The notes beneath the pieces were generated by a model. It did not search any database and was not told where the DNA came from. It saw nothing but the letters and a program-made list of their open reading frames with translations. This document shows positions 7,279 to 26,330 of a stretch of DNA of 64,000 bases, one piece after another; the stretch's first letter is position 1, and each line of letters opens with the position of its first letter. The DNA comes from a bacterium (GTDB lineage Bacteria; Krumholzibacteriota; Krumholzibacteriia; LZORAL124-64-63): the NCBI GenBank assembly GCA_016706845.1, contig JADJIV010000004.1:47727-111726 (forward strand), in the 5' to 3' direction. A program made the position numbers and the translations under genes.

Positions 7279-8217
7279 TCAAACCCCCGCAGCGTGCTCC
7301 ACGCGGATGCTGACCGAACCGTCCATCTCCGAGCGCAGATCGGGCTTGGCCACGGCTTCGACCTTGATCCAGTCGTCGGAGAGCAGCATGCACCCGACCA
7401 GGAACTCGGCCACGACCTTGGCCCGGTCCTGGGCCAGCCGCTTGTTCTCGGCCTGCACCACGACCTTCAGCGGCGAGTAGGGGTGGTCCTTGCGGATCTG
7501 GTCCGCCGCGCGGGTCAGCCAGCCGCGACCGCTGTCGCGCAGGAGCGTGCCGCCCTTCTGGAAGACCTCGTCGCCGGTGAACTCGAGCCGGCGCTCGTTC
7601 TTCTCGCGGTAGTCCACGGCCGGGATGCGGAAGCTGATGCCGGCGTAGTTGTAGGTGTTGGTCCCCTTGTCGGTGACGCTGAAGACGTAGCTGTAGGGGT
7701 AGCCCACCTGCAGCATCTCGTTCAGGTCGCCGCGGCCGTCCCAGGCGACCTGGCCCGGCGGCTGGCCCTTGTCCTCGAAGTGCCGGAACGGGGCGCCCCG
7801 GAAGTCGGTCACCGTCAGGGCCCAGCGGCGGGCCTGGTGCCCCTCGGGGTCCTCCGGGAAGAACGTCACCACCGGCGGCTGCGCCGGATCGCGCAGCCAG
7901 CAGTGCGGCGCCTGGTCGCTGTGCAGGTCGCGGGGGTTGTTCAGGAAGGGCTGCAGGCCCTCGACCGGGCTGATCTCCAGGACCGCCTCGTCGAAGTCCG
8001 TGAAGAACGTGTCGATGATCGCGGCGCTGAGCGCGACCTCGAACGTGCTCTTGACGATGTCCTGCAGGACCTGGTTCTCGGCCTCCACGACCATCTCGGG
8101 CAGGCCCTGGTCGGGGACCGTCTCCTGTTCCGTCACGGCGGGGGCCGGGGCGCTGCCGAACAGGAGGCAGGCGCCCGCGGCGATGATCCGGAATCCCCTG
8201 AAGTCGTTGCGAGTCAT
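7279..8217 (-). CDS. Secreted protein: TonB-box-like segment, FlgD-like Ig domain, degenerate OmpA-like C-domain
   Basis: AAAGGA RBS before ATG 8217; signal peptide; PEMVVEA; RRWALTVTDFRG..VAWDGRG..YSYVFSVTD; C-terminal LAQDRAKVVAEFL. Confidence 0.72.
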   Translation of the reverse strand: MTRNDFRGFRIIAAGACLLFGSAPAPAVTEQETVPDQGLPEMVVEAENQVLQDIVKSTFEVALSAAIIDTFFTDFDEAVLEISPVEGLQPFLNNPRDLHSDQAPHCWLRDPAQPPVVTFFPEDPEGHQARRWALTVTDFRGAPFRHFEDKGQPPGQVAWDGRGDLNEMLQVGYPYSYVFSVTDKGTNTYNYAGISFRIPAVDYREKNERRLEFTGDEVFQKGGTLLRDSGRGWLTRAADQIRKDHPYSPLKVVVQAENKRLAQDRAKVVAEFLVGCMLLSDDWIKVEAVAKPDLRSEMDGSVSIRVEHAAGV

Positions 8218-8271
8218 GATGTGTGTCCTTTGACTCAGGTTCATCGGCTATGGAGTTGTCGGGGTTCCGCC

Positions 8272-9618
8272 CTAGTTGAGGCGGAAGACGATCGTGATCA
8301 CCCCCCACTGCTCGACACGGTCCGCTCCGGCCAGGGGCTCGAAGCGGAACTGCTTGACGGCGTCCATCGCGGCCCGGTTCAGGTCGCGGTGGGCCGAGGT
8401 CTGGTCGAAGTACATGTTGTCCTTGACGCGCCCGTCGGGCAGGACCGTGAAGTGCACGGCCACCACGCCTTCCCAGCCGGCCTTGCGGGCCGCCTCGCTG
8501 TAGACGGGCATGGCGCTGGCGGCGACCTTGCGATCGCTGATCTGGCCGCTGATGGTCATCGAGACGCCCTTGCCGCCCATGGCCTTGGCCTGCGTTTCGG
8601 CCAGCTGCGTCTGCGGCGGGGCCGTCGGCTTGCTGGTGGCCTCGGCCACCGCCGCGGCGGTCGGCGTCTCGGCCGGGGCCTGCTGGCGGCCGCGCAGGCT
8701 GGCCTGGCCGGTGGCGCCGGTCGCGCCGCCGGGACCGTAGTCCAGGATGGTGGTGCGGCCCTGCGTGGAGCGCGCGGGCGCCGCCACGTCGACGGCGGCC
8801 GCGGCCCGGCGGTCGTTGTCCTTCGCGGTCTGGACGAGCGCGGCCACCGAACCCTGGTAGGCCGTCTGGCCCTCCTCGAGCCGGCCGCCGACCAGACCGG
8901 CGTGGCCGGTCTCGCTGCCGCCGGTGGCCAGCTGCAGGGCCATGCGGCCGCCGCCGGACGACGTCCCGCCCTGCCCGACCTCGAAGTCGACCTCCGAGAG
9001 GTCCACGCTGCTCTTGCGCCCGACCAGCGCCACGTCGTTGCCCTGGAACGCGGCCTGCGCCTCCCGCGACGTCAGGCGCGGCGCGTTCGCGTCCGCGGCC
9101 AGGGCCGAGGGATCACGCAGGTTGCGCGTGTCGAGCCGCGGCGCGGCGTCGGCGAACGTGCGGGAATCCAGCTGGCGCGAGGTGGTGTCCAGGAACTGCC
9201 GCTGCTGGGCGGACGTCAGGTGCGGGGCGTCGACGTCCGCGGCCTGGCGGCTCTGCAGCAGCGGACGCGTCGCCAGCTTGTTCGGCAGGGTCTGCAGCAT
9301 AGGCCGGCTCTGCAGCGCGGGCTGCGGCGTCTCCGGCTGCGGGACCGGCGTCTCTTCGAGCTTCGACTCGGCCGGCGTCTCCTGCTTGGGCTGGACCACC
9401 GGCTGGGTCTTGACGCGGACCTGCTGGGCCACGTCCTCGCCGTAGCGGGCCTCGATGTAGGCGATCTCGGTCAGCTCGTCGAGGGCCTCGCCGGCCTTGC
9501 GGGCGCCCTCGCGCATCATCAGCGCGAGCAGCAGGAAGATGGCGGCGTGGATGATGACGCTGGTGGTGAAGCCGCCCGTCGTCGCCGCGCGGCGGCTCAT
9601 CTCGTGTCTCATCATCAC
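8272..9618 (-). CDS. TonB family energy transducer with long periplasmic linker
   Basis: N-terminal TM with SVIIHAAIF (SxxxH); Pro/Gln/Ala-rich linker; TonB_C domain PVYSEAARKAGWEGVVAVHFTVLPDGRV..LNRAAMDAVKQFRFEP. Confidence 0.88.
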   Translation of the reverse strand: MMMRHEMSRRAATTGGFTTSVIIHAAIFLLLALMMREGARKAGEALDELTEIAYIEARYGEDVAQQVRVKTQPVVQPKQETPAESKLEETPVPQPETPQPALQSRPMLQTLPNKLATRPLLQSRQAADVDAPHLTSAQQRQFLDTTSRQLDSRTFADAAPRLDTRNLRDPSALAADANAPRLTSREAQAAFQGNDVALVGRKSSVDLSEVDFEVGQGGTSSGGGRMALQLATGGSETGHAGLVGGRLEEGQTAYQGSVAALVQTAKDNDRRAAAAVDVAAPARSTQGRTTILDYGPGGATGATGQASLRGRQQAPAETPTAAAVAEATSKPTAPPQTQLAETQAKAMGGKGVSMTISGQISDRKVAASAMPVYSEAARKAGWEGVVAVHFTVLPDGRVKDNMYFDQTSAHRDLNRAAMDAVKQFRFEPLAGADRVEQWGVITIVFRLN

Positions 9619-10025
9619 GAGCCCACCTCCTCGCCACCCTTTTTACCGGTGGAAATGGCGATGCGGCCCGCCTTGGCGCCTTCGACCTCGGCGATGAGAC
9701 GCTCGACGTCCCCGTACATCAGGCCCTTGTCCGCCTTGACGACGGCCACGGCGTCGGGGTTGTTCTCGAACAGGGGCGTCAGCAGGGCGCGCAATTCGCC
9801 GAGCGCCAGCTGCTCCTCGCCCACGAAGATCTGTCCCTCGAGGGTGAAGATGATCTCGGTCTTGTCGGTGTCGTCCATCTGGCTCGCGCGCGCCTCCGGC
9901 AGGTCCACCTTGTGGGTGGTGTCGTTGAGGAACGGCGAGATGATCATCAGGGTCAGCACGACCACCAGCGACACGTTGATCATCGGCACGACGTCGGTTT
10001 TCGTTTCGTAGCGGTAGACCTTCAA
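9615..10025 (-). CDS. ExbD/TolR family protein (second copy; Asn at the usual TM Asp position)
   Basis: VVPMINVSLVVVLTLMII, VDLPEA, AVVKADKGLMYGDVERLI; TTG start with GGAGG RBS. Confidence 0.88.
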   Translation of the reverse strand: MKVYRYETKTDVVPMINVSLVVVLTLMIISPFLNDTTHKVDLPEARASQMDDTDKTEIIFTLEGQIFVGEEQLALGELRALLTPLFENNPDAVAVVKADKGLMYGDVERLIAEVEGAKAGRIAISTGKKGGEEVGS

Positions 10026-10453
10026 CGCGCCTCCTCCTTGCGGTTGAGGAGCGCGAGGCTGCTGGCGCCGCCGCCCTTGGCGGCGTCCATGACGTCGACC
10101 ACGTCCCCGAGCTTCACGAAGTCGCTCGGCACGATGACGACGGTCTTGTCGGTGCGCGCGGAGAGCGCGTCCGCCAGCCGCTGCTCGAGGTCGGCGAGCG
10201 CCACCGTCTCCCCGTTCATCTTGACGCCCTCGGGGGTCACGCTCACCAGCAGCATCTCCTCGTCCTGCTTCTCGCGCGTGGTCACCACGGTCTCGCTGGC
10301 TTCGGCGCGCGTCGCGTTGACCTGGATGCCGTTGCCCAGGATGGCCGGCATGGTCATCAGGAACACGATGATCAGCGTGGTCGTGACGTCCGCCAACGGG
10401 GTGATGTTGGGGGCGTTCTCCTCACGCATCTGCGATCGACTGGATCGTGCCAC
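10022..10453 (-). CDS. exbD: ExbD/TolR family protein
   Basis: PNITPLADVTTTLIIVFLMTMP (conserved TM Asp), VVIVPSDFVKLGDVVDVMDAAK; start GTG 10453 or ATG 10429. Confidence 0.88.
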   Translation of the reverse strand: MARSSRSQMREENAPNITPLADVTTTLIIVFLMTMPAILGNGIQVNATRAEASETVVTTREKQDEEMLLVSVTPEGVKMNGETVALADLEQRLADALSARTDKTVVIVPSDFVKLGDVVDVMDAAKGGGASSLALLNRKEEAR

Positions 10454-10467
10454 GTCGGCCTCGCTTC

Positions 10468-11193
10468 CTACCGGCCGACCGCGGCGGGTTCCTGGGCCGT
10501 GGTGACGACGGCGTCGCAAAGGGCGTTGACGTCGCGCTTGTCCGCCTTGGCGCGCGCGGCCGGGCGATCTTCCTGCCGGGCCATGCCGCGCAGCACGTTG
10601 AAGAACTCCTCGCGGACGTCCTCCAGCTCGATGATCCGGGTGCGGATGCGGCGCACGCAGAAGTTGAAGCAGATCGAGGCCGTGACGGCCACGATGATGC
10701 CGGCCGCCGTGGTCAGCAGGGCCTCGCTGACGCCCATGGCCACCACGGCGCTGCCGCCGGCGCCGGTGCGCGCGATGTCGGAGAAGGCGCGGATGATGCC
10801 GACCACCGTGCCGTAGAGCCCCAGCAGCGGGCCGATGTTGCTCATCGTGCCCAGCACGCTCAGGTTGCGCTCCATCTCCACCTGCTCCATCTCGATGGCG
10901 GTGTCGAAGCGCTGCTTGAGCTCGGAAGTGGGGATGTCGGCGTGCGGCAGGCACTGGCTGACGACGCGGGCGGCCGCGCCCTTCTGCTGGTCGCACCACT
11001 GGCCGGCGACCTTCATGTCCCCGCCCTTCATCTTCGCGGCCAGAGCCTTCATGAAGCCGCGCGAGTCGGATCGGGACCGGTAGAAGTACAGGCTGCGTTC
11101 GATGGCGTAGCCTACGGTGACCACGGAACAGATGATCAGCACGATCATCGACAGTGATCCGAAAAGAGTCTTGGTGAGCGACATCCCCATCAT
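10468..11193 (-). CDS. exbB: MotA/TolQ/ExbB proton channel family protein
   Basis: LSVLGTMSNIGPLLGLYGTVVGIIRAF and GVSEALLTTAAGIIVAV signatures. Confidence 0.92.
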   Translation of the reverse strand: MMGMSLTKTLFGSLSMIVLIICSVVTVGYAIERSLYFYRSRSDSRGFMKALAAKMKGGDMKVAGQWCDQQKGAAARVVSQCLPHADIPTSELKQRFDTAIEMEQVEMERNLSVLGTMSNIGPLLGLYGTVVGIIRAFSDIARTGAGGSAVVAMGVSEALLTTAAGIIVAVTASICFNFCVRRIRTRIIELEDVREEFFNVLRGMARQEDRPAARAKADKRDVNALCDAVVTTAQEPAAVGR

Positions 11194-11224: not shown

Positions 11225-14200
11225 CTAGTTGCCGGCTGACATGGCCTGGATCTCGGCGAGCCGGCCCTCGGCCATCGCCGTCCATTCCGGCTTGCCGTTG
11301 GTCTGCACGATCCGGTTGTAGGCCTGGACGGCGGCGTTCCAGTCCCCGCGCTCCTCGCTGATCTGGCCGATCTGGGCCAGGCTGGCGATGCGGTGCGGGG
11401 CCGCGGCGTCGGCGCCGCTGGCGGACATCTCGTAGCTGGCGACGGCCTGCTCGATGCGGTCGAGCTTCTCGTAGCACTGGCCCTGCCGGTAGCCGATCTC
11501 CTCGATGCCGGCTTCGCCCTTCTCCAGCGCCTTCTGGTAGGCCGCCGCGGCGTTCTCGTAGTCGCCGAGCTCGTCCTGGTACAGCGTGGCGATCTGGAAG
11601 GAGAGGCCCTTGGCCCGCTCGTCGGCGGGGTAGTCCGCCTGGAAGCGGATCAGCGCCCCGATGGCGGACGGCCAGTCCTCGAGCTCCTGGTAGCAGAGGC
11701 CGGCGTTGAACAGGGCCAGCGGCGAGTACTCGCCGGCGGGCATGGTGTCGACCAGGTACTCGTAGGCCTCCGCCGCCTCCTCGTACTGCTCCGTCTTGTA
11801 CAGGACGGTGCCCTCGCGGAAGCGCGACAGCCCGACCAGCTCGTGGTCGGGGTTCGTCTTCAGGAAGCTGCGGTAGCCGGCGAGCGCCATCGGCATCTGC
11901 TCCAAGCGGTAGTAGCTCTCGGCCAGGTAGAAGAGGGCGCCCGGGGCGCTCTCGCTGTCGGCGTAGTCCAGAGTGACCTTTTCGAACGCCTTGGCAGCGG
12001 CCTCGTAGTTTCCTTCGGCAAAGAGGTTTTGACCTTTAGTCCAGTAATAGTCCCCGGCCAGGGGGCTGTCCGGACGGTTGCCGAGGTACTCCTCCATGTC
12101 CTTGCCGCTGCGGTAGTAGCAGCTCTGGATGCCGAGTTCCGCGTCCTCGACGCGGGGGTCCTCCGGGAAGGCCTCGACGAAGGCCTGGAAGGCCGTGATC
12201 GCCGCCTGGTCCTGCTGCTGGTTGTAGTGGCAGTTGGCCAGGCCGAAGGCGGCGTCGGCGGCGTGCGGGCCGTCGGGGGCGCGGTTCTGCAGCGTCAGGT
12301 AGCTGGCGCGCGCCTGCTCGAAGCGGGCCAGTCCGAACTGCGTGTCGGCCAGGCGGTAGAGCGCCTCTTCGGCCTCGCCCGCCCGCGGGTAGTTGGTGAC
12401 CAGCTTCTGCCAGGCCTCCACCGCGTTCTCGTAGTACTGCAGGCGGTAGAAGCAGTCGCCCTGGTTCAGCAGCGCGGCCGCCACCTGCGGTCCCTCGGGG
12501 CTGCGCTCCAGGAACTTGGTGATCTCCTCCAGCGCCTTCTGGTAGTCGTGCTGGTTGAAGTACAGCGAGCCCAGGGCCAGCGAGTTGCCGCCCTCCTCGC
12601 TGTCGGCGTTCGCCAGCTCGAAGAGGAACTTCTCCTGCTCCTCGAGGGCCAGGTCGTACTCGCCGATCTGGCTGTAGCTGGCGACGAGGCCCCTGCAAGC
12701 TGGCCGCCGCCACCTCGCTGCGCGGGTAGCCCGTCAGCACCAGCCGGTACATGCCGCCCGCCTCGCGGAAGAGACCCTCGTGGTAGTAGGCCTCGCCGAG
12801 CTGGTAGTAGGTGCGGGCGCGCCAGGGGCTGGGCGTCGGCAGCAGGCGGTTGGCGATGAAGTGGTAGTTGGTGATCAGGCGGTCGTACTGCTCCAGCTTC
12901 AGGTAGGTGTCGGTGGCCAGGAACAGCGCCCGCTCGCCGGCGTCGGTGTTGACGTGCCGGTCCATGACGTTCTGGAATTCGCGCACCGCGAGGTCGTACT
13001 CCTGCAGCTCCTTGTGGGCGTAGCCCAGCAGAACCTGGACGCGGGCGGACAGCGGGTCGCCGGGGAAGATGTCCAGGAACTCGTGCGCCATCAGGACGGC
13101 CTGGGGGTAGTTCTTCTCGGCGATGTAGGCGTAGACGACCTTGTGCATGGCGGCGCTGGCCAGCTCCGAGTCCTGGTAGCCCTTGACCACTTCGGTGAAG
13201 GCGAAGATGGCGTGGCTGGTGCGGCCGAGCGCCATCCAGGCCGAGCCCATCAGGTAGTTGGCGGGCGCGCAGATCGGCTCGCCGCCGAGGTCCTTGCAGA
13301 GGTCCTCGAGCTTGTTCACGCACTCGTTGTACTCGCCGGAGCGGTAGTCCACGCAGGCCTGCTTGTAGCGGGCCATCGGCACGAACTTGCTCTCGGGGTA
13401 GCCCTCGAGGAAGTCGCGGTAGCTGCGCGCGGCGACCTTGTTCTGGTCGCTGTTGTAGAAGGCCTCCGCCACGCTGAACGCGGCGTCGTCGGCCAGCGGG
13501 CTCTCCGGGAAGAGCCGCAGGGCCTGGCGGTAGCGCTGCACGGCCAGGATGTACTGGCCCGTGGCCTCGAGGCAGCGGCCGAGGTAATAGAGGCCCAGGT
13601 CCGTGTCCACCTTCTCGAAATGCTGCGTGGCCTCCTCGTAGTCCTGCTCGACGTAGGCGAACAGGCCCAGGACGAACTGCACCTGCGGCAGCTTCTGGTA
13701 GCCGGGCCGGTCGGCCAGCAGCTGCTTGTAGGTCCGCTCCACGCTGCGCCAGTCCTGCAGCGAGGCCTGGGTCTGGCCCATGGCGAACAGGGCCTCGCCG
13801 GCCAGGAAGCTGTCGGCGCTCTGCTGCAGCAGCTGCGTGAAGGTCTCCAGGGCCCGCTCCCGCTTGCCCAGGTTGAACTGGCACTCGCCCCGGCGCAGCA
13901 GCGCGCTGCCCGCGAGGAACGGGTCGCCGCCCTTGAACTTCCCGACGCGGTCGTACTCGCGCAGCGCCGTGTCGTAGTCGCCGTTGCAGAAGTAGCACTC
14001 GGCCACCATGTACTGGGCGCGGGCCGCGCGGTCGGTCTTCTTGTAGTGCGTCAGGTACAGCTGGTACTGCTGCAGGGCGTTGCCCTTGTCCGCGTCGCGG
14101 GCGAAGGTGTCGCCGGCGGCGCGCCAGAGCGCGTCCTCGTTGGGGACCACGGCGTCGTCGTCGCCGGCGAAGGCCGGCGCGGCGGCGAAGGCCAGCAGGG

Positions 14201-14276
14201 CCAGCAGGGCCAGCAGGGCCGACAGATCCCGCAGGGCCGGTCGGGCCGGCCGCCGGGTGGCAGCAAGTCGTTTCAT
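11225..14276 (-). CDS. Secreted multi-TPR protein (CpoB/BamD-like repeats), about 1016 aa; one extra base at 12690-12693
   Basis: Signal peptide from ATG 14276; repeats such as AQYMVAECYF, FPESPLADDAAFSVAEAFY, YPRAGEAEEALYRLA. Removing one G from a GGGG run restores SLQGLVASYSQIGEY and joins the two track ORFs. Confidence 0.85.
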
Positions 14277-15607
14277 CGGTCGTCCTCTCGCGATTTCAGG
14301 CTCTCGGAACCGTCGACGTCGATGCGGATCGGAGTGCGGGTCCGGTTGCGGAAGCCCATGATCTCGACCTGGACCACGTGGTCCCACTCCTGGCCCAGGT
14401 CGTCCAGGATGACGACGGTGGCCCGGTAGACGCCGTCGCCCACCAGCCGGCCGTTCTCGTCCTCGCCGCCCCAGACCACGGCCTCCGGCGGCGGGCCCTC
14501 CTCGAAGATGCGGCGGACCAGCTCGCCCTGGTCGTTGCGGATCTCGACGCGCCACTCGGCCACCTCGCCGCGCAGCGCCGTGTCGACGCCGAAGGAGACG
14601 CTGCGGTCGTTGCCCGACGGGCTGAAGCGCAGGCGGTCGCTGTGGATCTCGACGCCGTCGGTGATGCCGAAGCGCATCGTGGCGCTGACCACCGTCGTGG
14701 AGCCGAGGTCGTGCGCGACGTGGGCGTAGTCGAGCTGCCAGTTCTGCCAGCGCACGCCGGCCCCGAAGCTGGTCTGGTCGCGCACCGTGTCGTAGCCGCC
14801 GCGCAGCACCAGCTGCCGCAACGGCCAGGCCTCGATGCCGCCCTGGAAGTCCAGGTCCATGAGGTCGGTGCGGACCAGGTCCGTCAGCACGAGCATGCGG
14901 TTGTTGAAGAAGTGCAGGCCGGCGCCGGCGCGCAGGGTCCTGGCCAGCTTCTCCGGCGTTTCCAGCAGCGTGATCTCCGGCTGCAGGGCGTTCTGGTAGG
15001 AGACGCCCAGGCTGAGCCGCCGCTCGGGGCGCAGGTAGAGGCCCACGTCGGCGCCGTAGCCCGAGCCGGTGAAGCCGCCCACGTCCTGGGAGATCGACTT
15101 CAGGGTGGCGCCCCAGCCGAAGCGGCTGCTGCCGCGGGCGTAGGTCAGCGCGAAGATCCCCTCCTTCTCTTGGAAGGTGTCGTTCATGTCGACCCACTCG
15201 GTCGCGCGCTCGAACTCGCCGCTGTTGGTGAAGGTGCCGCTGAAGGCGAAGGTGCCGCGGCCCTCGCTCGGCAGGCCGAACGCCACGTACGAGTAGCGGG
15301 TGTCGCCGAAGAGGGTGGCCCCCATCGCCGTCACCTCCATGGTGCGCAGCTGCGAGAGGGCGGCCGGGTTCCAGTACACGGTGGCGACGTCGCCGCCGAG
15401 CGCGCCGACGGCTCCGCCGAGGGCGAGGCTGCGGGCGCTGCTGCCGAAGCGCAGGAACGCGCCGGGCGCACCGCCGTCCTGGCCGGCGAGGACCGGTCCG
15501 GCAGCCAGCAGGGCCGCCAGGAGCAGGAGCGCGGGGTATCGTCTTTCCGCCGCGCCGAAGGCGCGTCGGGGGTGCTGGCGCTGGTTGTTGTCCGCGTCGC
15601 GCTTCAT
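14273..15607 (-). CDS. PorV/UPF0164-like outer-membrane beta-barrel fused to a C-terminal FlgD-like domain
   Basis: AGGAGAGG RBS; GAFLRFGSSARSLALGGA..DVATVYWNPAAL; amphipathic beta-strands ending LDYAHVAHDLGSTTVVSATMRFG; then FSPSGNDR..WRVEIRNDQGELVRRI..VVWGGEDENGRLVGDGVY. Confidence 0.8.
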   Translation of the reverse strand: MKRDADNNQRQHPRRAFGAAERRYPALLLLAALLAAGPVLAGQDGGAPGAFLRFGSSARSLALGGAVGALGGDVATVYWNPAALSQLRTMEVTAMGATLFGDTRYSYVAFGLPSEGRGTFAFSGTFTNSGEFERATEWVDMNDTFQEKEGIFALTYARGSSRFGWGATLKSISQDVGGFTGSGYGADVGLYLRPERRLSLGVSYQNALQPEITLLETPEKLARTLRAGAGLHFFNNRMLVLTDLVRTDLMDLDFQGGIEAWPLRQLVLRGGYDTVRDQTSFGAGVRWQNWQLDYAHVAHDLGSTTVVSATMRFGITDGVEIHSDRLRFSPSGNDRSVSFGVDTALRGEVAEWRVEIRNDQGELVRRIFEEGPPPEAVVWGGEDENGRLVGDGVYRATVVILDDLGQEWDHVVQVEIMGFRNRTRTPIRIDVDGSESLKSREDDR

Positions 15608-15615
15608 GGCCTCTC

Positions 15616-18600
15616 CTACTTCACCACCGCGATCTTGCGGCGGAAATCGAAGCCCTGGCCGGTCACCCGGCAGATGTAGCCGCCGTTGGCCACCACGTCG
15701 CCCTGGCCGTTGCGGCCGTCCCAGGCGAACTCGGTGGTCTGGTCGGCGGCGGCGTTCAGTTGGCGATTCAGCACGATCGTCCCGTAGAGGTCGTAGATCG
15801 TGATGTTCACCGTGCCGGCGGCCGTCGGTTTGAACAGGATCCGCGTCAGCTCGCGCACGGGGTTGAACGGGTTGGGCCGGTTGGTGATCTCCCGCCCCTC
15901 GTCCAGCGCCTGCGTGGTGTAGAGCACGATCTGCCGCAGCGCCTCCTTCACGCCCGTGTTCTCTTCGGCAAAGAACCGCAGGACATGAACGCCGGATTCG
16001 CCGGGGGCCAGCTCCTCGAGGCTGAAGGCCTCCTGGTAGGCGGTCAGGGGCTGCGCGCCGTCGGACTGGTCGACGTCGAAGCGGATCGTGGTGGTGGCCT
16101 CCGGGATGCCCGGGACCGCCGCCAGGGTGATCTGCGTGTCGGCGCTGACGTACCAGCCGTCGAGGTACTCGCTGGCGACGCCGGTGAAGGACGGGGTGGT
16201 GACCGGCGGCCCGGCCACGGCCAGCAGGACCTCCTCGGGGTCGAGGGCGTCCACGCCGGCCCGCAGCAGGACGTCGGTGGTGCCGAAGGCGGCGACGCGC
16301 AGGGTCGTCTCGGCGGTGCCGTCGCTGCCGGTCAGCAGGTGGACGGCGCCGGCGCGGGCCGAGCCGAGCGTGGCCTCGCCGGCGCGGACCTCGAAGGCGA
16401 CGGCGGCGCGGGGCGCCGGGTTGCCGCCCTCGTCGCGGGCCGCGACGCGGACGCGGATCTGCTGGTCGGGCCGCAGGACGCGGTCGAAGGGCGAGCCGTC
16501 CGACTCGAGCAGGGTCAGGGTGAAGGTCCGCGCCGGGGCCGCCAGCACGGTGATCAGGCGGCTGAGCACGTCGCCGCCGGCGGCGTCGGTCACGCGCAGG
16601 TAGATCGACTCGGCGCGGTCGTAGGCCTGGTCGTCGAGCAGCGCGCGGCCCTCGACGGTGGCGCCGTAGGTGTAGCGCAGCACGCCGGTCGGGACGAGCG
16701 CCGGGTCCGGGCGCACCGCGCCCGACCAGGCGTTGATCGCCGAGATGCTGAAGGTCTCGTCGTAACCGGTGACCAGCCGGCCCGTGGTCACGTCGACGCG
16801 CGTGACCGACAGCGGCCACGGCTCCCCGGCGACGACCGTGTCCGGGGCCGTCACCGCGTAGGTCACGCCCACCGGGATGACCGTCACCACGGGGCTGTCG
16901 GTCGAGCGGCCGCGCTCGTCGGAGACGCGGATGATGATGCGCTCGCTGACGCCGTAGCTCTGGGTCGCGATGTCGGCCGCGCCCTGCAGGAGCGTCCATT
17001 CCGTCACGCCCAGCTGCCCGTCGGGGGCGCCGAAGTCGTAGCGCAGCGCCTCCAGGGCGATGCGGTTGCCGGCCGGCACCGTGGCGCCGGTGGCGGGGTT
17101 GACCAGGCGCACGCCCACGCCGAAGCGCGAGGGCGGCCCCACGAAGGTCGTGTCCGGGACGCTGACCTGGTAGACGGCCTCCGCCACCGGGATGGTCACG
17201 TGGCCCTGGCCGGCCTCGGGGTGCTGGTTGTCGTCGGCGCTGAGGACCAGGTTGCCGGCGCCGTCGAGCACGACCCCGACCTGCCGGCGGCCGCCGATGA
17301 AGGGGGCGTGGTAGTCCGCGGGGTTCTGCCACGCGAACAGGTCGGGCTCCGAGCAGTCGAGCTCCAGGGCGCCGCCGTCCAGCGACGTGATCGGGTTGAA
17401 GAACTGGTCGACCGCGCGCAGCTCCACGACGAAGGGTTCGCCCGCCGTCTGGACGACCGGCGCGCCGGTCTTGCCGGTGCCGACCTCGGCGCCGGGCTCC
17501 GGCGTCTCGCCGGGCGCGACGATCTGCAGCTGCTTGAAGCCGTCGGCCGCGAGGCGGCAGCTGTTGGAGAAGCCCTCGTTGCCGTCGCCGTCGACGATGC
17601 GGAAGTAGACCTCCTCGGCCAGCGTGTAGGTCTGCTGGACGTCGGTGTGGCCGCCGGTCAGCATCTGCTGGACGGTGCCCAGCACGCCGCCGCCGGCCTC
17701 GCCGGTGGCGGCGCTCAGCACCGAGATCTGGATCAGGCCGCTGTGGGCCGCGACGCGCTCGCCGGTGTTGCTGTCGATCAGGTCGACCGCCAGCGGGAAG
17801 GTGGCCGGGCCGCCCACGATCGCTGCCGCGGGGGCCGCGACGTCGTAGTAGAGCCCGCCCGTCTGCATCGTCACGACGCTGCTCGTGGTCTGCCGCCCGA
17901 AGTCGTCGGACACGCGGATCCGCAGGTCCTCCAGGGCGCTGTAGCTCTGATCGCTGATGAACGAGACGCCGTTGATCAGGTAGACCTCCGTGGTGCCGAG
18001 CACGCCGTTGCCGGGCGCGAAATTCGCCCGCAGCGGCGTCAGGTCGACCCGGTGGCCGGCGCCGGCGACGGGTTCGCCGGTGTCGGGATCGACGAGCCGC
18101 ACCGTCATCGCGAAGCCCGGCATGCCGCCGGTCTGGGCCGCGGCGGGCACGGTGATCTGGTAGACGTAGGGCCGGCGCACCGGCACCGCGACGGTCTGTC
18201 CCGGCAGCTGCGGCGCGTCGAGGTCGCCCACGGTGACGCCCACCGCGCCCTCGGCCACCAGGAAGGCGTCGACGGCGCGGCTGCCGAGGAAGAACGGCGC
18301 GTCCTGCGGGTCGGGGTTGTCCGGCCAGGAGAACGAGCCGTCGGTGGCCGAGAGGTGGACCCGGCCGCCCGACGCGTCGCCGATCGGGTTCCAGTACTGG
18401 TCCACGGCCCGCACCACCATCGGGAACGGTTCGCCCGAACGCTGGGTGTCCGGCAGGGCCGACTTGCCCGTGGCGGCGAAGGCGGCCTCGCCCGGCCGCG
18501 CCGTCTCGCCCGGGGTCAGCAGCTGCAGCCGCTGATAGCCGGCGGGCCGGACGGTGAACAGGGGGCTGTCGCCGGCCAGGCCGCTGGGATCGAAGGCGCG

Positions 18601-21600
18601 CACCGCGAACTCGCCGGCCTGCGTGTAGGTCTGCTGGAAGCTGACCTGGCCGTCGACGAGGCGGCGCGAGGTCACGCCCACGGCGCCGGCGCCGAGCGTC
18701 CCGCCGCCGTCGACGACCGCGACGCTGAAGAAGCGGTCGTCGTCCACGAGCGATCCCGTCTCGGTGTCGCGCAGCCTCACCGTCACCGGGAAGGCCGCCG
18801 GCGGCCCCGCCACGGGCGCGGGCGTCGTGCCGACGACGACGTCGTACCACAGGCCGTTGGGATCCATGCGGATGATGTCGCTGTAGCCGAGGCGGCCGGA
18901 GGAGTCGCTCACCTCGATGACGATGCGGCTGGCGACGTCGTAGGCCTGGGCGGGGATCGCCACGACGCCGGCGGTCAGCTGGGCCTGCGTCGCCAGCAGC
19001 ACGCCCGGGGCGGGCTGCAGCGTCGGCGTCAGGGCGCGCAGGGTGACCTGGTTGTAGGCGTTGGTCATGACGGTCCCGGCCTCGTCCACCAGTTCCACGC
19101 TCATGGCGAAGGAGCTGGGCGGCCCGACGAACGCCGTGTCGGGGGTCGTGATCCGGTACTGGGCCCCGGCGGCGACCTGCACGACCACGTCGTGGCCCAG
19201 GATCTCCGCGTCGGTCAGGTCGTAGGCCGTGAGCGTGGCGTAGCCGAGGCTCGACAGCGCCACGGGGAACACGATCTCGCCGGCGGCGAGCGCCTGGCCG
19301 TTGTTCAGGGGATTGCCCGGCACGACGGAGCCCTCGTCGCTGCCGAGGTGGATGTTGTGCACGCTGTTGTCGACGCGGTTCCAGAAGCGGTCGACGGCGT
19401 CGACGGTCAGCGGGAACTGCAGCGTCGCGGTCTGCACCGCGGGCGTGCCGGTCTTGCCGTCGACCTCGGGGCCGCCGGGGTTCGGCGTCTCGCCGGGCGC
19501 GACGGCCAGCAGGCGGTAGAATTCGCCGGGATTCACGCGCACGGCGCTGGAGTCGCGGCGGGCGGACACCGCCAGGTCCCGCGCGCGCAGCGTCTGGGTC
19601 GTCGCCGTGCGGAAGGACAGGGCGAAGGCCGTGGAGCCGTCGGGCTCCAGCGGCACGTCGTTGGCCGTGACCAGGTCGGCGTAGCTGCTGGTCGACACCC
19701 TGACGATCGGGCTGGCGGGCACCGGGTTCCACCACGCGTCCAGGGCGGTCACCGCGGCGGTCACGTCCGCGCCGGCGACCACCGGCAGCGGCTCGCCGAA
19801 CTTGCCGGGCGCCTCGCCCGGCGTGGCCGTCTCGCCCGGCAGCAGGACCTGCAGGCCCGCGTACGCGCCGGGGAAGACGGTGAAGGGGTTGCTCTCGCCG
19901 GTGCGCCCGTAGACGTCGTCCACGGCCGACACGGTGATGCCCTGGCCGGCGCGCGTGATGCGCATGCTGCCGCGCCACACGCCCTGGTAGATGCCGGTGC
20001 CGTAGCCGTCGGCGAGGCTGACGCGCAGCGGCGCCAGCACGTCGCCGCCCACGTTCAGGCGCAGCGAGACGCTGTCGGTGAAGGTGCGGATGTGGTTGCC
20101 GTAGGCGTCGCGCGCGATCACGGTGAGGTTCGGCAGCCAGGCGCCGGCCTGGTGGTCGGGCACCGGCTCGAGGATGTCGGTCGGGTCGGGGTTGACGCCG
20201 TCGTTGACGCCGATCTCGAAGTGGTCGATCACGCCGGCCTCGACCGGGATGAGCGCCGACGCGGTGCGCGTGCTCACCGGGTCGGTGGCGGTGACCAGCT
20301 GCTGGTTCGGATCCGCCAGAGTCTCGAGCGTGACCGGGAAGACGCCGGTCCCGGACTGCAAGCTCTGGGGCGCCGCGGGCAGGGTCGCCTGGGGATCGGT
20401 GCTGGTGAACACCAGCGGGATCGGCAGGGACGGGCTCGTCGCCTCGATGGGGTTGTAGTAGTAGTCCGTGGCGATGACCTGGATGTTGAAGGGCGCGCCC
20501 GCGTCCTGGGGGGACGGGGTGCCGACCTTGCCGGGCGCGTAGATCGTGCCGGCGTCCAGGGTTTCGCCGGGCGCGATCACCATCAGCCGCTGGTAGACGT
20601 TCGGCGAGACGCGCAGGGGGCTCGAGAAGCTGTCCGCCTGGCCGCCGACGCTGGCCTGCAGCAGCTGGTCGCCGTGCGTCGCCATCAGGGCGCTGTAGAC
20701 GCCGGTGCCGTTCAGGGTGATGACCCCGCTCTCGATCAGGGTGCCGCCGCCGTCGAGCAGCAGCAGGTGGCCCGTCGGGCAGGTGATCGCGACGGTGCGC
20801 GAGCCGGACACGAGGTTGCCGTAGCGGTCCACGGCCCTGATCTCCAGGGATTCGATCATCTGCCCGGCGATGATCGGCGTGGGCAGGCCGATGTTGCCGC
20901 CGAAGGCCGGGTCGTTCAGGCCCGGGGTCCAGGTCTGGCCCGGCAGCGTGAACAGGACCTTCTCCATGGGGCCCGCGTTCACCTGGAAGTCGCCCGACAG
21001 CGTCACCACGCCGGTGTTGCTGTCGACGATCAGCCGGGCGCTGAACGCACGCTTGGTCACCTGCACCGAGGCGTTGAGCACGCCGTTGACGAAGTTGTTG
21101 CTGGTGGTGATCAGGTAGTCCGCGCTCTCGTCGACGGCGCCGATGCGGACCCGCATCGAGACGGGCCCGTTGTACGGGAACACGTTGTTGAACGAGTCGT
21201 AGGCGCGCACCCGGATCTGGAACGGGGTCGTGGTCGCCTGCACGGCGTTGGTGTCGAGCACGGCGTAGTCGAAGGAGAAGTGGTGGAGCCCGGCCGGGTT
21301 GACCTGGACGTTGGCCGAGCTCGAGGTCGAGATCGGGCCCGAGGCGGTGACCGTCACCTGGCGCAGGCCCGAGGTCATCAGCGTGGCCGACTGGTCCTGG
21401 ACCGTGTTGCTGCTCATGGCCCCGCCGGCGGGCAGCGCCACGCCGGGGGCCGCGTCGTTGGCGCTCCAGGCCAGCGTCGGGAAGGGGCCCGACGCCACGG
21501 GGTTCCAGTACTGGTCGGTCGCGTAGACGTCGATGCCGGTGAACGGGAAGCCCGAGATCTGGGCGATGGCCGTGCCGCTGCGGCCCGGGCTGACGCCCGG

Positions 21601-22407
21601 CGTCAGGGTCTGGCCCGGCAGCAGCAGGACGACGCGGTTCAGGGCCCCGGGATAGAGCGGCGCCACGAGGCCGCTGCCGGCCGCGGCCGCGGCCTGCGTC
21701 GGGTAGACGACAGTGTTCAGGGCGTTGACCGTGTTCTGCTGCAGCGCCGGGTCGGTGCCCTGGAAGACGACGTTGGCCGCGGCGACGCCGGCGACGAACG
21801 AGCCGCCGCCGATGGTGAGCGACGGGCCGGAGGTGAAGTGCCCGATCGCCGGCGACAGCACCACGTCGTCGTCGAAGTTGCGGACGGCCACGTTCATGAG
21901 GTCGCGGGCGGTGACCGTCAGCGCGACGTTCTGGCCGACGTACTTGTCGCCGGCCGGTACGCCGATCTCGAAGTGGTGGACGAAGTTGTAGCAGTTGATT
22001 TCAACCTGGGCGAACGGCACCGAACCGTCGTCCTGGTCCGCGACGCGCAACCGCACCGGCTGCCCGTCGTCCAGGAAATCGATCCCGGTGAAGATGCGCT
22101 CGCCGTTCTGCAGGTAAGCCGAAGCCGGCAGGGTCGCAGCCACGTCCGGCGAGGACAGCGCGGCGCGGATGAAGTCCGCCGCAGTGTCGGTCGTGCCGTC
22201 GGTGTTCACCGCCCGCACGAGCACGCTGAACTGCTCGTAGATGGTGACCGCGGGCCGACCGTCGACGATCTCGGGGTTGATCACCGTGATCTCGAGGTGG
22301 TCGAAGGCCAGGGCGGCCGCCGGCGCCAGGGCCAGCAGGCCCACAGCCAGGACGGTGGCGAACTTGGCGATGGCGATCCTGTTGCGCGTGCGCTCGTTCA
22401 TGGTCAT
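15616..22407 (-). CDS. Giant secreted multi-repeat (Ig-like) surface protein with T9SS/FlgD-like CTD, about 2260 aa
   Basis: Signal peptide ending ..ALAPAAALA; 7 copies of PG[EQ]TxxPG..GK.G.P..AVD.[YW]WN; 6 copies of Y.[VI]..P....G.P..F...V.L.D...G; CTD ITNRPNPFNP..TIYDLYG..FAWDGRNGQGDVVANGGYICRV..RRKIAVVK. Confidence 0.88.
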   Translation of the reverse strand: MTMNERTRNRIAIAKFATVLAVGLLALAPAAALAFDHLEITVINPEIVDGRPAVTIYEQFSVLVRAVNTDGTTDTAADFIRAALSSPDVAATLPASAYLQNGERIFTGIDFLDDGQPVRLRVADQDDGSVPFAQVEINCYNFVHHFEIGVPAGDKYVGQNVALTVTARDLMNVAVRNFDDDVVLSPAIGHFTSGPSLTIGGGSFVAGVAAANVVFQGTDPALQQNTVNALNTVVYPTQAAAAAGSGLVAPLYPGALNRVVLLLPGQTLTPGVSPGRSGTAIAQISGFPFTGIDVYATDQYWNPVASGPFPTLAWSANDAAPGVALPAGGAMSSNTVQDQSATLMTSGLRQVTVTASGPISTSSSANVQVNPAGLHHFSFDYAVLDTNAVQATTTPFQIRVRAYDSFNNVFPYNGPVSMRVRIGAVDESADYLITTSNNFVNGVLNASVQVTKRAFSARLIVDSNTGVVTLSGDFQVNAGPMEKVLFTLPGQTWTPGLNDPAFGGNIGLPTPIIAGQMIESLEIRAVDRYGNLVSGSRTVAITCPTGHLLLLDGGGTLIESGVITLNGTGVYSALMATHGDQLLQASVGGQADSFSSPLRVSPNVYQRLMVIAPGETLDAGTIYAPGKVGTPSPQDAGAPFNIQVIATDYYYNPIEATSPSLPIPLVFTSTDPQATLPAAPQSLQSGTGVFPVTLETLADPNQQLVTATDPVSTRTASALIPVEAGVIDHFEIGVNDGVNPDPTDILEPVPDHQAGAWLPNLTVIARDAYGNHIRTFTDSVSLRLNVGGDVLAPLRVSLADGYGTGIYQGVWRGSMRITRAGQGITVSAVDDVYGRTGESNPFTVFPGAYAGLQVLLPGETATPGEAPGKFGEPLPVVAGADVTAAVTALDAWWNPVPASPIVRVSTSSYADLVTANDVPLEPDGSTAFALSFRTATTQTLRARDLAVSARRDSSAVRVNPGEFYRLLAVAPGETPNPGGPEVDGKTGTPAVQTATLQFPLTVDAVDRFWNRVDNSVHNIHLGSDEGSVVPGNPLNNGQALAAGEIVFPVALSSLGYATLTAYDLTDAEILGHDVVVQVAAGAQYRITTPDTAFVGPPSSFAMSVELVDEAGTVMTNAYNQVTLRALTPTLQPAPGVLLATQAQLTAGVVAIPAQAYDVASRIVIEVSDSSGRLGYSDIIRMDPNGLWYDVVVGTTPAPVAGPPAAFPVTVRLRDTETGSLVDDDRFFSVAVVDGGGTLGAGAVGVTSRRLVDGQVSFQQTYTQAGEFAVRAFDPSGLAGDSPLFTVRPAGYQRLQLLTPGETARPGEAAFAATGKSALPDTQRSGEPFPMVVRAVDQYWNPIGDASGGRVHLSATDGSFSWPDNPDPQDAPFFLGSRAVDAFLVAEGAVGVTVGDLDAPQLPGQTVAVPVRRPYVYQITVPAAAQTGGMPGFAMTVRLVDPDTGEPVAGAGHRVDLTPLRANFAPGNGVLGTTEVYLINGVSFISDQSYSALEDLRIRVSDDFGRQTTSSVVTMQTGGLYYDVAAPAAAIVGGPATFPLAVDLIDSNTGERVAAHSGLIQISVLSAATGEAGGGVLGTVQQMLTGGHTDVQQTYTLAEEVYFRIVDGDGNEGFSNSCRLAADGFKQLQIVAPGETPEPGAEVGTGKTGAPVVQTAGEPFVVELRAVDQFFNPITSLDGGALELDCSEPDLFAWQNPADYHAPFIGGRRQVGVVLDGAGNLVLSADDNQHPEAGQGHVTIPVAEAVYQVSVPDTTFVGPPSRFGVGVRLVNPATGATVPAGNRIALEALRYDFGAPDGQLGVTEWTLLQGAADIATQSYGVSERIIIRVSDERGRSTDSPVVTVIPVGVTYAVTAPDTVVAGEPWPLSVTRVDVTTGRLVTGYDETFSISAINAWSGAVRPDPALVPTGVLRYTYGATVEGRALLDDQAYDRAESIYLRVTDAAGGDVLSRLITVLAAPARTFTLTLLESDGSPFDRVLRPDQQIRVRVAARDEGGNPAPRAAVAFEVRAGEATLGSARAGAVHLLTGSDGTAETTLRVAAFGTTDVLLRAGVDALDPEEVLLAVAGPPVTTPSFTGVASEYLDGWYVSADTQITLAAVPGIPEATTTIRFDVDQSDGAQPLTAYQEAFSLEELAPGESGVHVLRFFAEENTGVKEALRQIVLYTTQALDEGREITNRPNPFNPVRELTRILFKPTAAGTVNITIYDLYGTIVLNRQLNAAADQTTEFAWDGRNGQGDVVANGGYICRVTGQGFDFRRKIAVVK

Positions 22408-24279: not shown

Positions 24280-26199
24280 CTACTTCACCAGCATGAGCTT
24301 GCGGACCTGCAGCACGTCGCCGCCGATGCGCAGACGGGCGAAGTAGGTGCCGCTGGCCACCTGCTGGCCCGCGTTGTTGGTGCCGTCCCAGGTCACGACG
24401 CGCTCGCCGCTGCCCTGGAGCCGCTCGTTGACGAGCGTGGAGACCAGCTCGCCGCGGATGTTGTAGACGTTCAGCTGGACCAGGTTGTCCCGCGTCAGGA
24501 CGAAGCGGATCTCCGTCTTGGGGTTGAACGGGTTCGGCTTGATGCTCGAGAACCCGCCCGCGGGCAGGATCTGGGGCAGGTCGCCCTCGACGGCCGTCGC
24601 GCCGACGGTGATGTCCTCGTCGCGCAGCGGGACCAGCTGGAACTCGCCGAAGGCGTAGTCCATGAAGCCCTTCACGGTGACCACGTCGCCGATGACCGGC
24701 GCGTACACCATGTTGAAGGCGGCGTTGACGACCAGCGAGTCGGCCCGCGCGCCGGTGTCGGAGACCAGGAACTCGCTGTACAGGGCCGAGCCCAGGGTGT
24801 CGACCACGGTCGAGGAGAACGTGCTCACCAGGACGCTCTCGTAGGCCTCGCCCAGGTAGCCGCCGGGCGACGTGTCGTCGGCCAGGACGGCGGTGTGCGC
24901 CTGGTTGTAGGCGGGCAGCGCGTTCTCGAAGGAGATGTACTCGATCGCCGTGCCGTTGTGCGGGTTCATCTCGGTCAGGCCGAAGTACTCCTCGATGTAG
25001 CCGCCGACCTGGACCTCGTCGCCGGGCAGCAGGAAGTTGGCGGCGGTGCCCTCGTAGCAGAGCAGGCCGCTGAAGGTGCCCGAGCCGTCCTGCATGATGA
25101 ACTTGCTGGTCGAGCCGGCGTCGCCGGTGCCGGCCGTCACGATGCCCTGCACGTTGACAACGCGGCCCGTGAACGGCGAGTTCTGCGGGGTGGTCGCGGG
25201 GTCGACGTACTGCACGTCGTGGATGGACGTGATGCCCACCGCGACCTCGTACCAGCCGGCCGGGGCGTCGCCCGGGTTCAGCGAGATGTTGCCGTTGCCG
25301 TCCAGGGCGCGGACGTAGAAGTCGACCTGACGGCCCAGGAAGCCGCCGGGGATGGTCGCCGACCACGTGCTGCCGCTGGTGTTGGTCATCGGGGTGCTCA
25401 GGAAGACGCCGGTGCTGTCGCCGGAGTCGTCGCGGTAGTAGAGGGCCGCGGAGGTCACGGCGACGTCGTCGGTGATCGTCGCGGTGACGGTGATCGGGTC
25501 GCTGGCCAGCGGGGTCCAGTCGGCGCAGTTGACGGCGTCGACGATCGGGCCCGAGCCCTCGATGAGGTCGCTCTGGCGGCGGGGCTTCAGCTCCATGATG
25601 CCGCCCGTGAAGTTGACCAGCGGGGCGATGATCCGGTAGCTGTCGCCGATCGCGACGCCGCCCGTGTTGATCCCCGTGTCGGTGTCGACGTAGACGATGA
25701 TGGTGTCGGTGCCGGAGTGCATCTTGAACTGGTTGGAGGCCACCGCCGTCGAGATCGTGCCGGAGATCGAGACGAACTTGCCGACGTTTTCGTAGTCGGA
25801 CTTCGCCTGGGCGATGGTCATCGTGACGGGCGTCGGAGCGGCCTCGGCGCCGAGGAAGGTGACCGTGGGCGCCGGGGAGAGCTGGATCTCGCCCTGGAAG
25901 ATGCCGACGGTGCCGGTGACCGAGACCCGGTCGCCGTAGGTCAGCGGGGGAGCCGCCGAGTTGAAGAAGGCGATGCCGTTGCCGGAATCGTCGATGATGT
26001 AGTGGGAGCCGGCGTTGTAGGTGCCCTTCAGAACGTAGACCCGGCCCTCGACCGTCTGGGTCGTGCCGTTGTAGGGGCTGGCCGGGGCGCCGGTCGTCGG
26101 ATTGTAGTACTGGATGTCGTCGATCGTCTGGGCGGCGGCCAAGCCGGCCACGCACACGACGACGGCGAGCGCCACGGCGCTCTGAATCGATCGCTTCAT
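24280..26199 (-). CDS. Secreted multi-OB-fold protein with FlgD/T9SS-like CTD
   Basis: ATG 26199 with AGGAG RBS; signal peptide; TIDDIQY..SPYNG and SIHDVQY..SPFTGRVVNVQGIVTA modules; CTD KPNPFNPKTEIRF..VYNIRGELV..WDGTNNAGQQVASGTYFARL..VRKLMLVK. Confidence 0.88.
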   Translation of the reverse strand: MKRSIQSAVALAVVVCVAGLAAAQTIDDIQYYNPTTGAPASPYNGTTQTVEGRVYVLKGTYNAGSHYIIDDSGNGIAFFNSAAPPLTYGDRVSVTGTVGIFQGEIQLSPAPTVTFLGAEAAPTPVTMTIAQAKSDYENVGKFVSISGTISTAVASNQFKMHSGTDTIIVYVDTDTGINTGGVAIGDSYRIIAPLVNFTGGIMELKPRRQSDLIEGSGPIVDAVNCADWTPLASDPITVTATITDDVAVTSAALYYRDDSGDSTGVFLSTPMTNTSGSTWSATIPGGFLGRQVDFYVRALDGNGNISLNPGDAPAGWYEVAVGITSIHDVQYVDPATTPQNSPFTGRVVNVQGIVTAGTGDAGSTSKFIMQDGSGTFSGLLCYEGTAANFLLPGDEVQVGGYIEEYFGLTEMNPHNGTAIEYISFENALPAYNQAHTAVLADDTSPGGYLGEAYESVLVSTFSSTVVDTLGSALYSEFLVSDTGARADSLVVNAAFNMVYAPVIGDVVTVKGFMDYAFGEFQLVPLRDEDITVGATAVEGDLPQILPAGGFSSIKPNPFNPKTEIRFVLTRDNLVQLNVYNIRGELVSTLVNERLQGSGERVVTWDGTNNAGQQVASGTYFARLRIGGDVLQVRKLMLVK

Positions 26200-26330
26200 A
26201 CTGTCTGTCTCCTCTGCTTCGGACACACGTTTCCCGCGCAGGGCACGAGTTGGGAGTCGGATCCAGGCGTCAAGTTCAGGATTATGAAGCGTGGAAAGTG
26301 GATCGCGGCCCATGACTCAGTGCACGCAAG

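Follow-up and report, generated by a model that had tools for sequence, protein, structure and literature searches.

What does a PorV-like outer membrane barrel do with an additional folded domain at its C terminus, and why does its gene stand directly behind that of a giant secreted protein? This question is raised by the gene at positions 14273..15607 (minus strand) of the 64,000-nt stretch of a Krumholzibacteriota contig analyzed here, which we refer to as the window. The encoded protein, P0002, is a fusion of a PorV/PorQ-family barrel with an immunoglobulin (Ig)-like domain of the FlgD_ig type, and the gene upstream of it encodes a giant protein that ends in a C-terminal domain (CTD) resembling those of type IX secretion system (T9SS) cargos. 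In a preliminary description of the locus, the extra domain had been taken for a built-in mimic of a cargo CTD, acting as a plug or docking module in a dedicated shuttle or translocon. Our data favor a different role, to which we assign a probability of roughly 0.55: P0002 would be the cognate carrier or anchor of the giant, and its Ig domain a periplasmic handle coupling the barrel to a tetratricopeptide repeat (TPR) protein and a Ton-type motor. The gene and its parts are as follows.

14273..15607, minus strand: PorV/PorQ-family barrel with a C-terminal FlgD_ig fusion (P0002), 444 aa plus stop
15485..15607, minus strand: signal peptide, aa 1-41, ending in ...LLLLAALLAAGPVLA ahead of GQD (read from the sequence; predicted cleavage site)
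15344..15478, minus strand: N-terminal hatch, aa 44-88, with the invariant ARSLALG...YWNPA (conservation and helices of the AlphaFold2 (AF2) model)
14669..15343, minus strand: 14-strand β-barrel, aa 89-313 (DSSP on the AF2 model, Foldseek)
14360..14668, minus strand: linker and FlgD_ig-type Ig-like domain, aa 314-416 (PF13860, AF2; predicted to be periplasmic)
14276..14359, minus strand: conserved C-terminal tail, aa 417-444, consensus EILGFRDRTRVPIRVEISG followed by a charged end (orthologue conservation)

Translation of 14273..15607 on the minus strand gave 444 aa without internal stops, and the profile of GC content at third codon positions agreed with this strand and frame. The plus-strand frame across the same interval is open as well, yet it was rejected because the phase of third-position GC marks the minus strand as coding. 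The TAG stop of the giant gene (15618..15616) is followed by 8 nt, gagaggcc, and then by the ATG of P0002 at 15607, which is the spacing previously described for this pair; the spacer is part of a GGAGAGG Shine-Dalgarno-like run. At the other end, the TGA of P0002 shares the sequence ATGA with the ATG of the downstream TPR gene. The short upstream spacing and the downstream overlap indicate translational coupling of the gene to both of its neighbors.

The family of the barrel was assigned by curated models and by fold. P0002 scored 120.3 bits with the NCBIfam model PorV_fam (NF033709; cut-off 90) over aa 51-316 (model positions 6-323 of 326), and the Pfam family FlgD_ig (PF13860) matched aa 334-399 with 29.6 bits (gathering cut-off 27; model positions 7-74 of 79), so that both parts of the fusion exceed the thresholds of the families first suggested for them. 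A Foldseek search with the structural model returned PorV chains at the top, namely 8gl6_F (E 6e-9) and 6h3i_F (from the F. johnsoniae translocon), with FadL/TodX proteins next. The passed curated score and a FadL-type 14-strand barrel with an N-terminal hatch place P0002 in the PorV/PorQ family, and NCBI names its orthologues, which come from metagenome-assembled genomes of Krumholzibacteria, "PorV/PorQ family protein." An identity as a FadL/TodX transporter was rejected; PF03349 (Toluene_X) reached 14.9 bits against a cut-off of 29.7, over aa 61-94 only, and PorV outranks FadL/TodX by fold. The PorV-like identity proposed in the preliminary description is thus confirmed, and P0002, rather than grouping with FadL/TodX among unrelated neighbors, belongs to the PorV family and lies in a conserved operon. 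Low scores were obtained with the more specific models: 36.4 bits with the T9SS PorV equivalog (NF033710; cut-off 250; only aa 50-195 matched), 89.2 bits with the T9SS PorQ equivalog (NF033711; cut-off 220; aa 28-207 only), and, for PorP/SprF, 11.3 bits with TIGR03519 (cut-off 90.55) and 12.9 bits with the Pfam family PorP_SprF (cut-off 22.3). All other PorV-family paralogues of the source genome stop at the barrel.

The AF2 model of P0002 was built on 31 orthologues (predicted local distance difference test (pLDDT), 78; predicted template modeling score, 0.70). Its signal-peptide region has low confidence, with a helix at aa 24-34. Short helices (aa 50-86) precede strand 1, and 14 main strands, as assigned by DSSP, span aa 90-313. 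In the hatch, the orthologue alignment has invariant columns D44-L87, and WNPA (aa 79-82) represents the FadL-type NPA motif. On the side of the termini, the turns of the barrel have 2-4 residues, whereas loops of up to 15-18 residues (aa 129-146 and 209-223) stand on the opposite face; these long loops are conserved (SGEFERAT...FSEKEG). The chain runs on for 131 aa after the last strand, in agreement with the earlier estimate of ~130, and forms a β-sandwich (aa 337-416; pLDDT 85-95) followed by a tail that is disordered in the monomer (pLDDT 41-52). Strand number and domain position, left to structural modeling in the preliminary description, are therefore 14 strands with the β-sandwich after the last of them. 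The FSP reported to open the extra domain is F328-S329-P330, invariant across the 31 orthologues, and Ig domain and tail are among the best-conserved regions of the alignment.

Approximately 80 protein clusters have 53-97% identity to P0002 and lengths of ~430-450 aa, and PF13860 matched nearly all of them. When 1.84 billion representatives were searched with a profile, the best 150 included ~38 further clusters, defined at 50% identity, whose match runs through barrel and Ig domain as a single stretch. A survey of the class found a match in at least 38 of 61 sampled genomes, nearly always over profile positions ~10-430; the number is a lower bound because 28 candidates were scored per genome. 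Over 61 related loci the gene order was constant: giant CTD protein, barrel-Ig fusion, ~1,000-aa TPR protein, ExbB, ExbD, ExbD, TonB-like protein, and a 320-aa protein. Among the loci long enough to test, an open reading frame (ORF) bearing a CTD ended within 400 nt upstream of the barrel in 50 of 53; in two of the others the CTD match overlaps the barrel start, and in one it ends 535 nt away. Downstream of the barrel, the TPR gene was present in 51 of 51 loci, and ExbB, two ExbD, and TonB beyond it in 35 of 35. The adjacency to a CTD protein, first remarked upon in the window, is thus the rule. In the literature, we found no description of the barrel-Ig fusion or of the operon. In the window, the neighbors of P0002 are as follows.

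15616..22407, minus strand: giant Ig-repeat secreted protein, ~2,260 aa, start probably ATG 22407 (the longest ORF begins at TTG 22464)
15619..15888, minus strand: CTD of the giant, T9SS type A/FlgD_ig-like, "VVANGGYICR...RKIAVVK" subclass (FlgD_ig, 38.4 bits)
11225..14276, minus strand: periplasmic TPR protein, ~1,011 aa (TPR family matches)
10468..11193, minus strand: ExbB/TolQ-type proton-channel subunit (PF01618, 91 bits; TolQ and ExbB equivalogs below cut-off)
10022..10432, minus strand: ExbD/TolR-type subunit 1 (PF02472, 67 bits; start codon uncertain)
9615..10025, minus strand: ExbD/TolR-type subunit 2 (PF02472, 67 bits)
8272..9618, minus strand: TonB-like protein with a long linker and TonB_C (PF03544, 53 bits; TIGR01352, 58 bits)
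7279..8244, minus strand: periplasmic Ig+OmpA/MotB-like protein with signal peptide, disordered N terminus, Ig domain, and OmpA/MotB-like domain (AF2, Foldseek)

The same gene order is kept at a great distance. It was found in L059 and L061 (38% identity; records labeled Zixibacteria and Gemmatimonadota) and on L078 and L080, which are short contigs with distant fusions; the short contigs of P0188, P0086, and P0100 have a CTD upstream of the barrel. On a JGI metagenome contig of 43.5% GC, the locus L076:599-18079 comprises a 3,116-aa CTD giant, a barrel-TPR fusion (P0141), ExbB, ExbD, ExbD, TonB, and a 305-aa protein.

Is the giant a special partner of this barrel or one CTD cargo among many? 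It aligns with its orthologues end to end (~2,260 aa in one stretch; 48-95% identity; ~50 loci) and has weak matches to Big_1 and Invasin_D3, with FlgD_ig at the C terminus. Its CTD scored 22.1 bits with TIGR04183 (cut-off 23) and 72.8 bits with a hidden Markov model (HMM) made from the 79 CTDs of the source genome. Among these 79, it ranked 76th in centrality, was the best match of none of the others, and was the only one with the motif NGGYxCR. When the CTDs encoded next to the barrel in L059, L061, L076, L078, and L080 were compared with all 79, it was nevertheless the one that each matched best, by margins of 2-15 bits. The body of the L076 giant is non-homologous to that of the window giant, and the CTD alone is common to both. 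These findings suggest that the CTD subclass was inherited together with the barrel, as a cognate CTD-carrier pair predicts, and the CTD of the giant appears, from its sequence, to be a separate subclass tied to the barrel-Ig gene. Of the dedicated shuttle or translocon put forward earlier, the dedication to the giant is therefore supported, on the strength of the adjacency and of the CTD subclass, and the plug or mimic role, weighed below, is not.

The role of the extra domain depends on the side of the outer membrane on which it lies. Since the number of strands is even and the Ig domain follows strand 14, both termini are on one side and the domain should emerge in the periplasm; short turns on the side of the termini and long loops opposite are the usual periplasmic and extracellular pattern, which assigns that side to the periplasm. 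This placement is further supported by the barrel lumen, which holds the conserved N-terminal hatch, by homologous barrels with OmpA or TPR domains at the same C-terminal position, by a profile similarity that is highest to FlgD_ig repeats ahead of an OmpA domain, and by the occurrence of the same type of Ig domain in the periplasmic Ig+OmpA/MotB-like product of the last operon gene. We conclude that the Ig domain of P0002 is very probably periplasmic.

The homologous fusions also point to a partner. In P0188, the barrel is followed by FlgD_ig, Ig, and OmpA domains, and four further barrel-TPR fusions accompany P0141 (P0157, P0173, P0193, and P0213). In P0141, which has 1,361 aa and no Ig domain, the barrel is fused to an orthologue of the operon TPR protein, collinear with it at 30-32% identity (E 8e-53 and 5e-72), and there is no internal signal peptide between barrel and TPR part. 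Together with the shared operon order, this fusion provides a Rosetta-stone link from the barrel C terminus to the TPR protein.

The source genome offers a T9SS-like background for such a carrier, as indicated by SprA, a PorU-like gene, and many CTD proteins. SprA scored above the model cut-off both here and in 21 of 21 relatives, the PorU-like gene (289 bits) lies at a contig end, and 79 of the 84 ORFs with a significant CTD match end in the CTD (a looser search gave 99 ORFs). With the GldM/PorM and GldL/PorL models TIGR03517 and TIGR03513, we obtained no match in the source genome, and the control genomes were silent too. GldM_1st (PF12081) matched in 0 of 21 relatives, a survey without a T9SS-positive control, so that absence is not established.

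For the binding partners, the transmission of force, and the physiological role of this machine, we infer the following scheme. If the pairs PorV-PorU, PorQ-PorZ, and SprF-SprB are taken as models, export of the giant would proceed via the SprA translocon, and its special CTD would then hold it on the extracellular loops of the barrel. The Ig domain and tail would hang from strand 14 into the periplasm as a handle, and this handle would join the barrel to the TPR scaffold, the Ig+OmpA-like protein, and the TonB-like arm, the latter powered by the ExbB-ExbD-ExbD proton motor. A precedent exists in SprF, which anchors the giant adhesin SprB and whose periplasmic C-terminal tail couples it to a motor-driven track (PMC12635249); in Flavobacterium johnsoniae, a disulfide joins the CxC tail of SprF to GldK (PMC12635249, PMC12618676). 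P0002 contains no cysteine, and any coupling would therefore be non-covalent, with a folded domain in place of the disulfide.

Comparison with the known systems brings out what is shared and what is not. Common to SprB-SprF and the locus described here is the logic of a giant followed by its own barrel gene, of anchoring by a carrier, and of a periplasmic extension to a motor-driven structure. Unlike SprF, P0002 belongs to another barrel family, its giant has a CTD that is type-A-like and not type B, its coupler is a cysteine-free Ig domain and not a CxC-GldK disulfide, and the motor genes are ExbB/ExbD/TonB-like and not GldLM; we regard the likeness to PorP/SprF as an analogy of function only. 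With PorV and the pairs PorV-PorU and PorQ-PorZ (6H3I, 8GL6), P0002 shares the NCBIfam family, the 14-strand FadL-type barrel, the top structural match, and the location beside a type-A-like CTD protein in a genome with SprA, a PorU-like protein, and many CTD cargos. It differs from PorV and PorQ in that it fails their equivalog models, has ~130 extra C-terminal residues, and lies in an operon with TPR, ExbB, ExbD, and TonB genes instead of porU; its lineage is Krumholzibacteriota-like with no GldM detected (no positive control), as opposed to the Bacteroidota of the PorV systems.

Several points weigh against a carrier of this kind. The PorV, PorQ, and PorP/SprF equivalogs all scored far under their cut-offs, which makes the carrier function of P0002 an analogy, and barrels of the PorV_fam and UPF0164 type are known also from bacteria without a T9SS. 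A better PorV candidate in the source genome (G000:C2:43625-44668; 194 bits on PorV_fam) might handle the giant as a general PorV paralogue, because the CTD of the giant fits the general profile. P0141 is a single metagenomic gene call, present on two contigs. The position of the Ig domain derives from topology rules and homologous fusions and not from model coordinates. In the window, the TPR gene is split into two frames by a 1-nt insertion near 12689 (GCAGGGGCCTCG vs GCAGGGG-CTCG in four relatives of 96-98% identity), which is either an assembly error at the G/C run or a real pseudogene. Finally, the source organism is uncultured, and the evidence comes from sequence comparison and structural models.

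Among the alternatives, the one that survives best, although we consider it improbable, is that the operon is the Tol-Pal-type envelope-integrity and division system of the lineage, made of TolQ, TolR, a TolA-like protein, a CpoB-like TPR protein, and a Pal-like OmpA protein, with the barrel as outer membrane anchor, the Ig domain as a spacer extending to partners bound to peptidoglycan, and the giant as an envelope layer or sheath. TolQ and TolR were the best equivalogs for the motor genes, albeit below threshold, and the TPR protein exceeded the cut-off of the YbgF/CpoB repeat model. The last gene product is OmpA/MotB-like, as its model retrieved OmpA/MotB peptidoglycan-binding domains in Foldseek (E 6e-7), and P0188 joins such a barrel to OmpA. 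However, the operon lacks TolB, its arm has TonB_C, and it goes together with a CTD protein of the T9SS type and a barrel of the PorV type. Moreover, the genome has a separate, canonical-looking Tol-Pal cluster at G000:C5:64200-67987, in which motif reading alone identified a TolQ-like gene, a fragment of a TolB-like propeller, and a lipoprotein of the Pal type with NRRAHF at its end. The operon was therefore rejected as the Tol-Pal system of this genome.

In its general plan, the operon resembles the Tol-Pal, Ton, and Myxococcus Agl-Glt systems, with an ExbB/TolQ plus ExbD/TolR motor, a TonB/TolA-like arm, a large TPR protein, an OmpA-like protein that binds peptidoglycan, and outer membrane barrels, although we know of no PorV-family barrel or T9SS-type CTD protein in any of the three. 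Membership of the Agl-Glt family was also rejected, as only weak matches were obtained (GltC, 21 bits; AgmX/PglI tail, 23 bits).

Less probable again is the proposal of the preliminary description, in which the CTD-like domain would mimic a cargo CTD as a plug, as an auto-inhibitory occupant of the CTD site, or as a means of docking to the translocon. The Ig domain of P0002 is indeed homologous to the cargo CTDs of the genome (hhalign 97.2%, E 3e-11) and strictly conserved beside a CTD-bearing giant. Similar values were obtained with the Ig domain of 7279..8244 (96-97%, E 1e-9 to 6e-11), and the likeness to cargo CTDs and to this neighboring domain (given earlier as 7279..8217) is thus real at the profile level. 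The match was highest with the FlgD_ig repeats ahead of the OmpA domain in P0102 (99.1%, E 4e-19), whereas the CTDs of the cognate giants gave the weakest of the four comparisons (90.8%, E 1e-6), on which ground we rejected specific mimicry of the giant's CTD.

The closest relatives of the Ig domain are therefore OmpA-family proteins with tandem FlgD_ig domains (P0102, with 8 FlgD_ig plus OmpA; Leptospira Lsa66-type), with which it shares the pattern FSP..G...W.L.I.D..G..V....G.G.PP....W.G.D..G..V.DG.Y. Unlike these proteins, P0002 has a single Ig domain on a membrane barrel, and the OmpA-like domain is on a separate operon protein, except in P0188-like fusions. The tail of P0002 can be aligned with the part of the 7279..8244 product just ahead of its OmpA-like domain.

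As a CTD, the Ig domain is incomplete. It scored 21.6 bits on the HMM from the 79 genome CTDs, over core positions 27-77 of 92 only, and has neither the N-terminal PNPF motif nor the last strand. It is not at the extreme C terminus, as ~45 residues follow the Pfam match, and TIGR04183, the type A CTD model, had no match in P0002 at E up to 1. The predicted location also speaks against a mimic. Cargo CTDs contact the extracellular loops of PorV inside SprA (PMC10994853), which makes a plug or CTD-site mimic unlikely for a domain that follows strand 14 on the periplasmic side. In addition, the lumen is already filled by the conserved WNPA hatch, and homologous barrels have TPR or OmpA domains at the same position. 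Docking remains plausible on the periplasmic side only, where the domain could be recognized by the TPR protein, whose PorW/SprE-like matches are weak (47-53 bits vs 250), or by other periplasmic T9SS parts.

The least likely alternative in our view is a FadL-like channel for a hydrophobic or other small substrate, gated by TonB, with the 14-strand barrel in place of a 22-strand receptor and the giant as a surface protein for binding or capture; the FadL-type fold, hatch, and NPA motif, the strong fold matches to FadL/TodX, the presence of TonB-ExbB-ExbD in an operon in which domain searches found no TonB-dependent receptor, and a conserved TonB-box-like motif in the last gene would suit it, but PorV stands above FadL by sequence and fold, Toluene_X stays below its cut-off, no TonB box is visible in P0002, channels of the FadL family rely on diffusion and need no energy input, and this reading would leave unexplained why the barrel is so strictly paired with a single special CTD subclass.

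We return to P0002 as carrier of the giant, with a periplasmic handle. The source genome has a second cluster, at G000:C2:39840-45975, which encodes on one strand a CTD protein, the genome's top PorV homologue, which stops at the barrel, two GWxTD-like ORFs, ExbB, ExbD, and a short TonB. This genome thus associates barrels of the PorV type with Ton-type motors at two loci. A bolder and doubtful extension, which we offer tentatively, is that lineages related to the Fibrobacterota-Chlorobiota-Bacteroidota group with SprA, PorV-type barrels, CTD cargos, and no detectable GldLM use an ExbB-ExbD-TonB motor and a giant TPR protein as the energy chain of their T9SS carriers; as part of the same conjecture, the Ig handle might let the motor pull the loaded carrier and the giant from the translocon or drive them along the surface. 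Such a chain would fit the distribution of SprA and of GldM_1st among the 21 relatives (for the latter, with no positive control) and the second cluster. If true, it would constitute a second, Ton-derived way to power type IX-style export or gliding.

How mechanical energy is delivered to the outer membrane carrier barrels of the T9SS is a current question, and the discovery in 2025 of a bond between the periplasmic tail of SprF and a moving track came as a surprise. The P0002 family represents a natural variant in which a carrier-type barrel bears a folded periplasmic domain. The link of this barrel to a TPR scaffold and a Ton-type motor is genetic and, in some lineages, also covalent, and the family offers concrete, testable interaction partners. 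It takes T9SS-like biology beyond Bacteroidota and suggests that motors of the Ton/Tol type can be connected to barrels of the PorV family. New here are the periplasmic-handle interpretation, the barrel-TPR and barrel-OmpA fusions, and the distinct CTD subclass. For annotation, a ~440-aa "PorV/PorQ family protein" with FlgD_ig, with a giant CTD protein encoded on one side and a ~1,000-aa TPR protein on the other, can serve as a marker of the module.

The product of 7279..8244 has a near-invariant segment, LPEMVVEAEN (aa 48-57), inside its otherwise disordered N terminus. The segment is TonB-box-like, although the protein is not a receptor, and judging from this sequence it may be a direct target of the TonB-like arm. 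Farther upstream of the giant, at 24280-26316 (minus strand), the window encodes a 679-aa secreted protein that ends in a CTD of the common type, one of ~80-100 such proteins in the genome.

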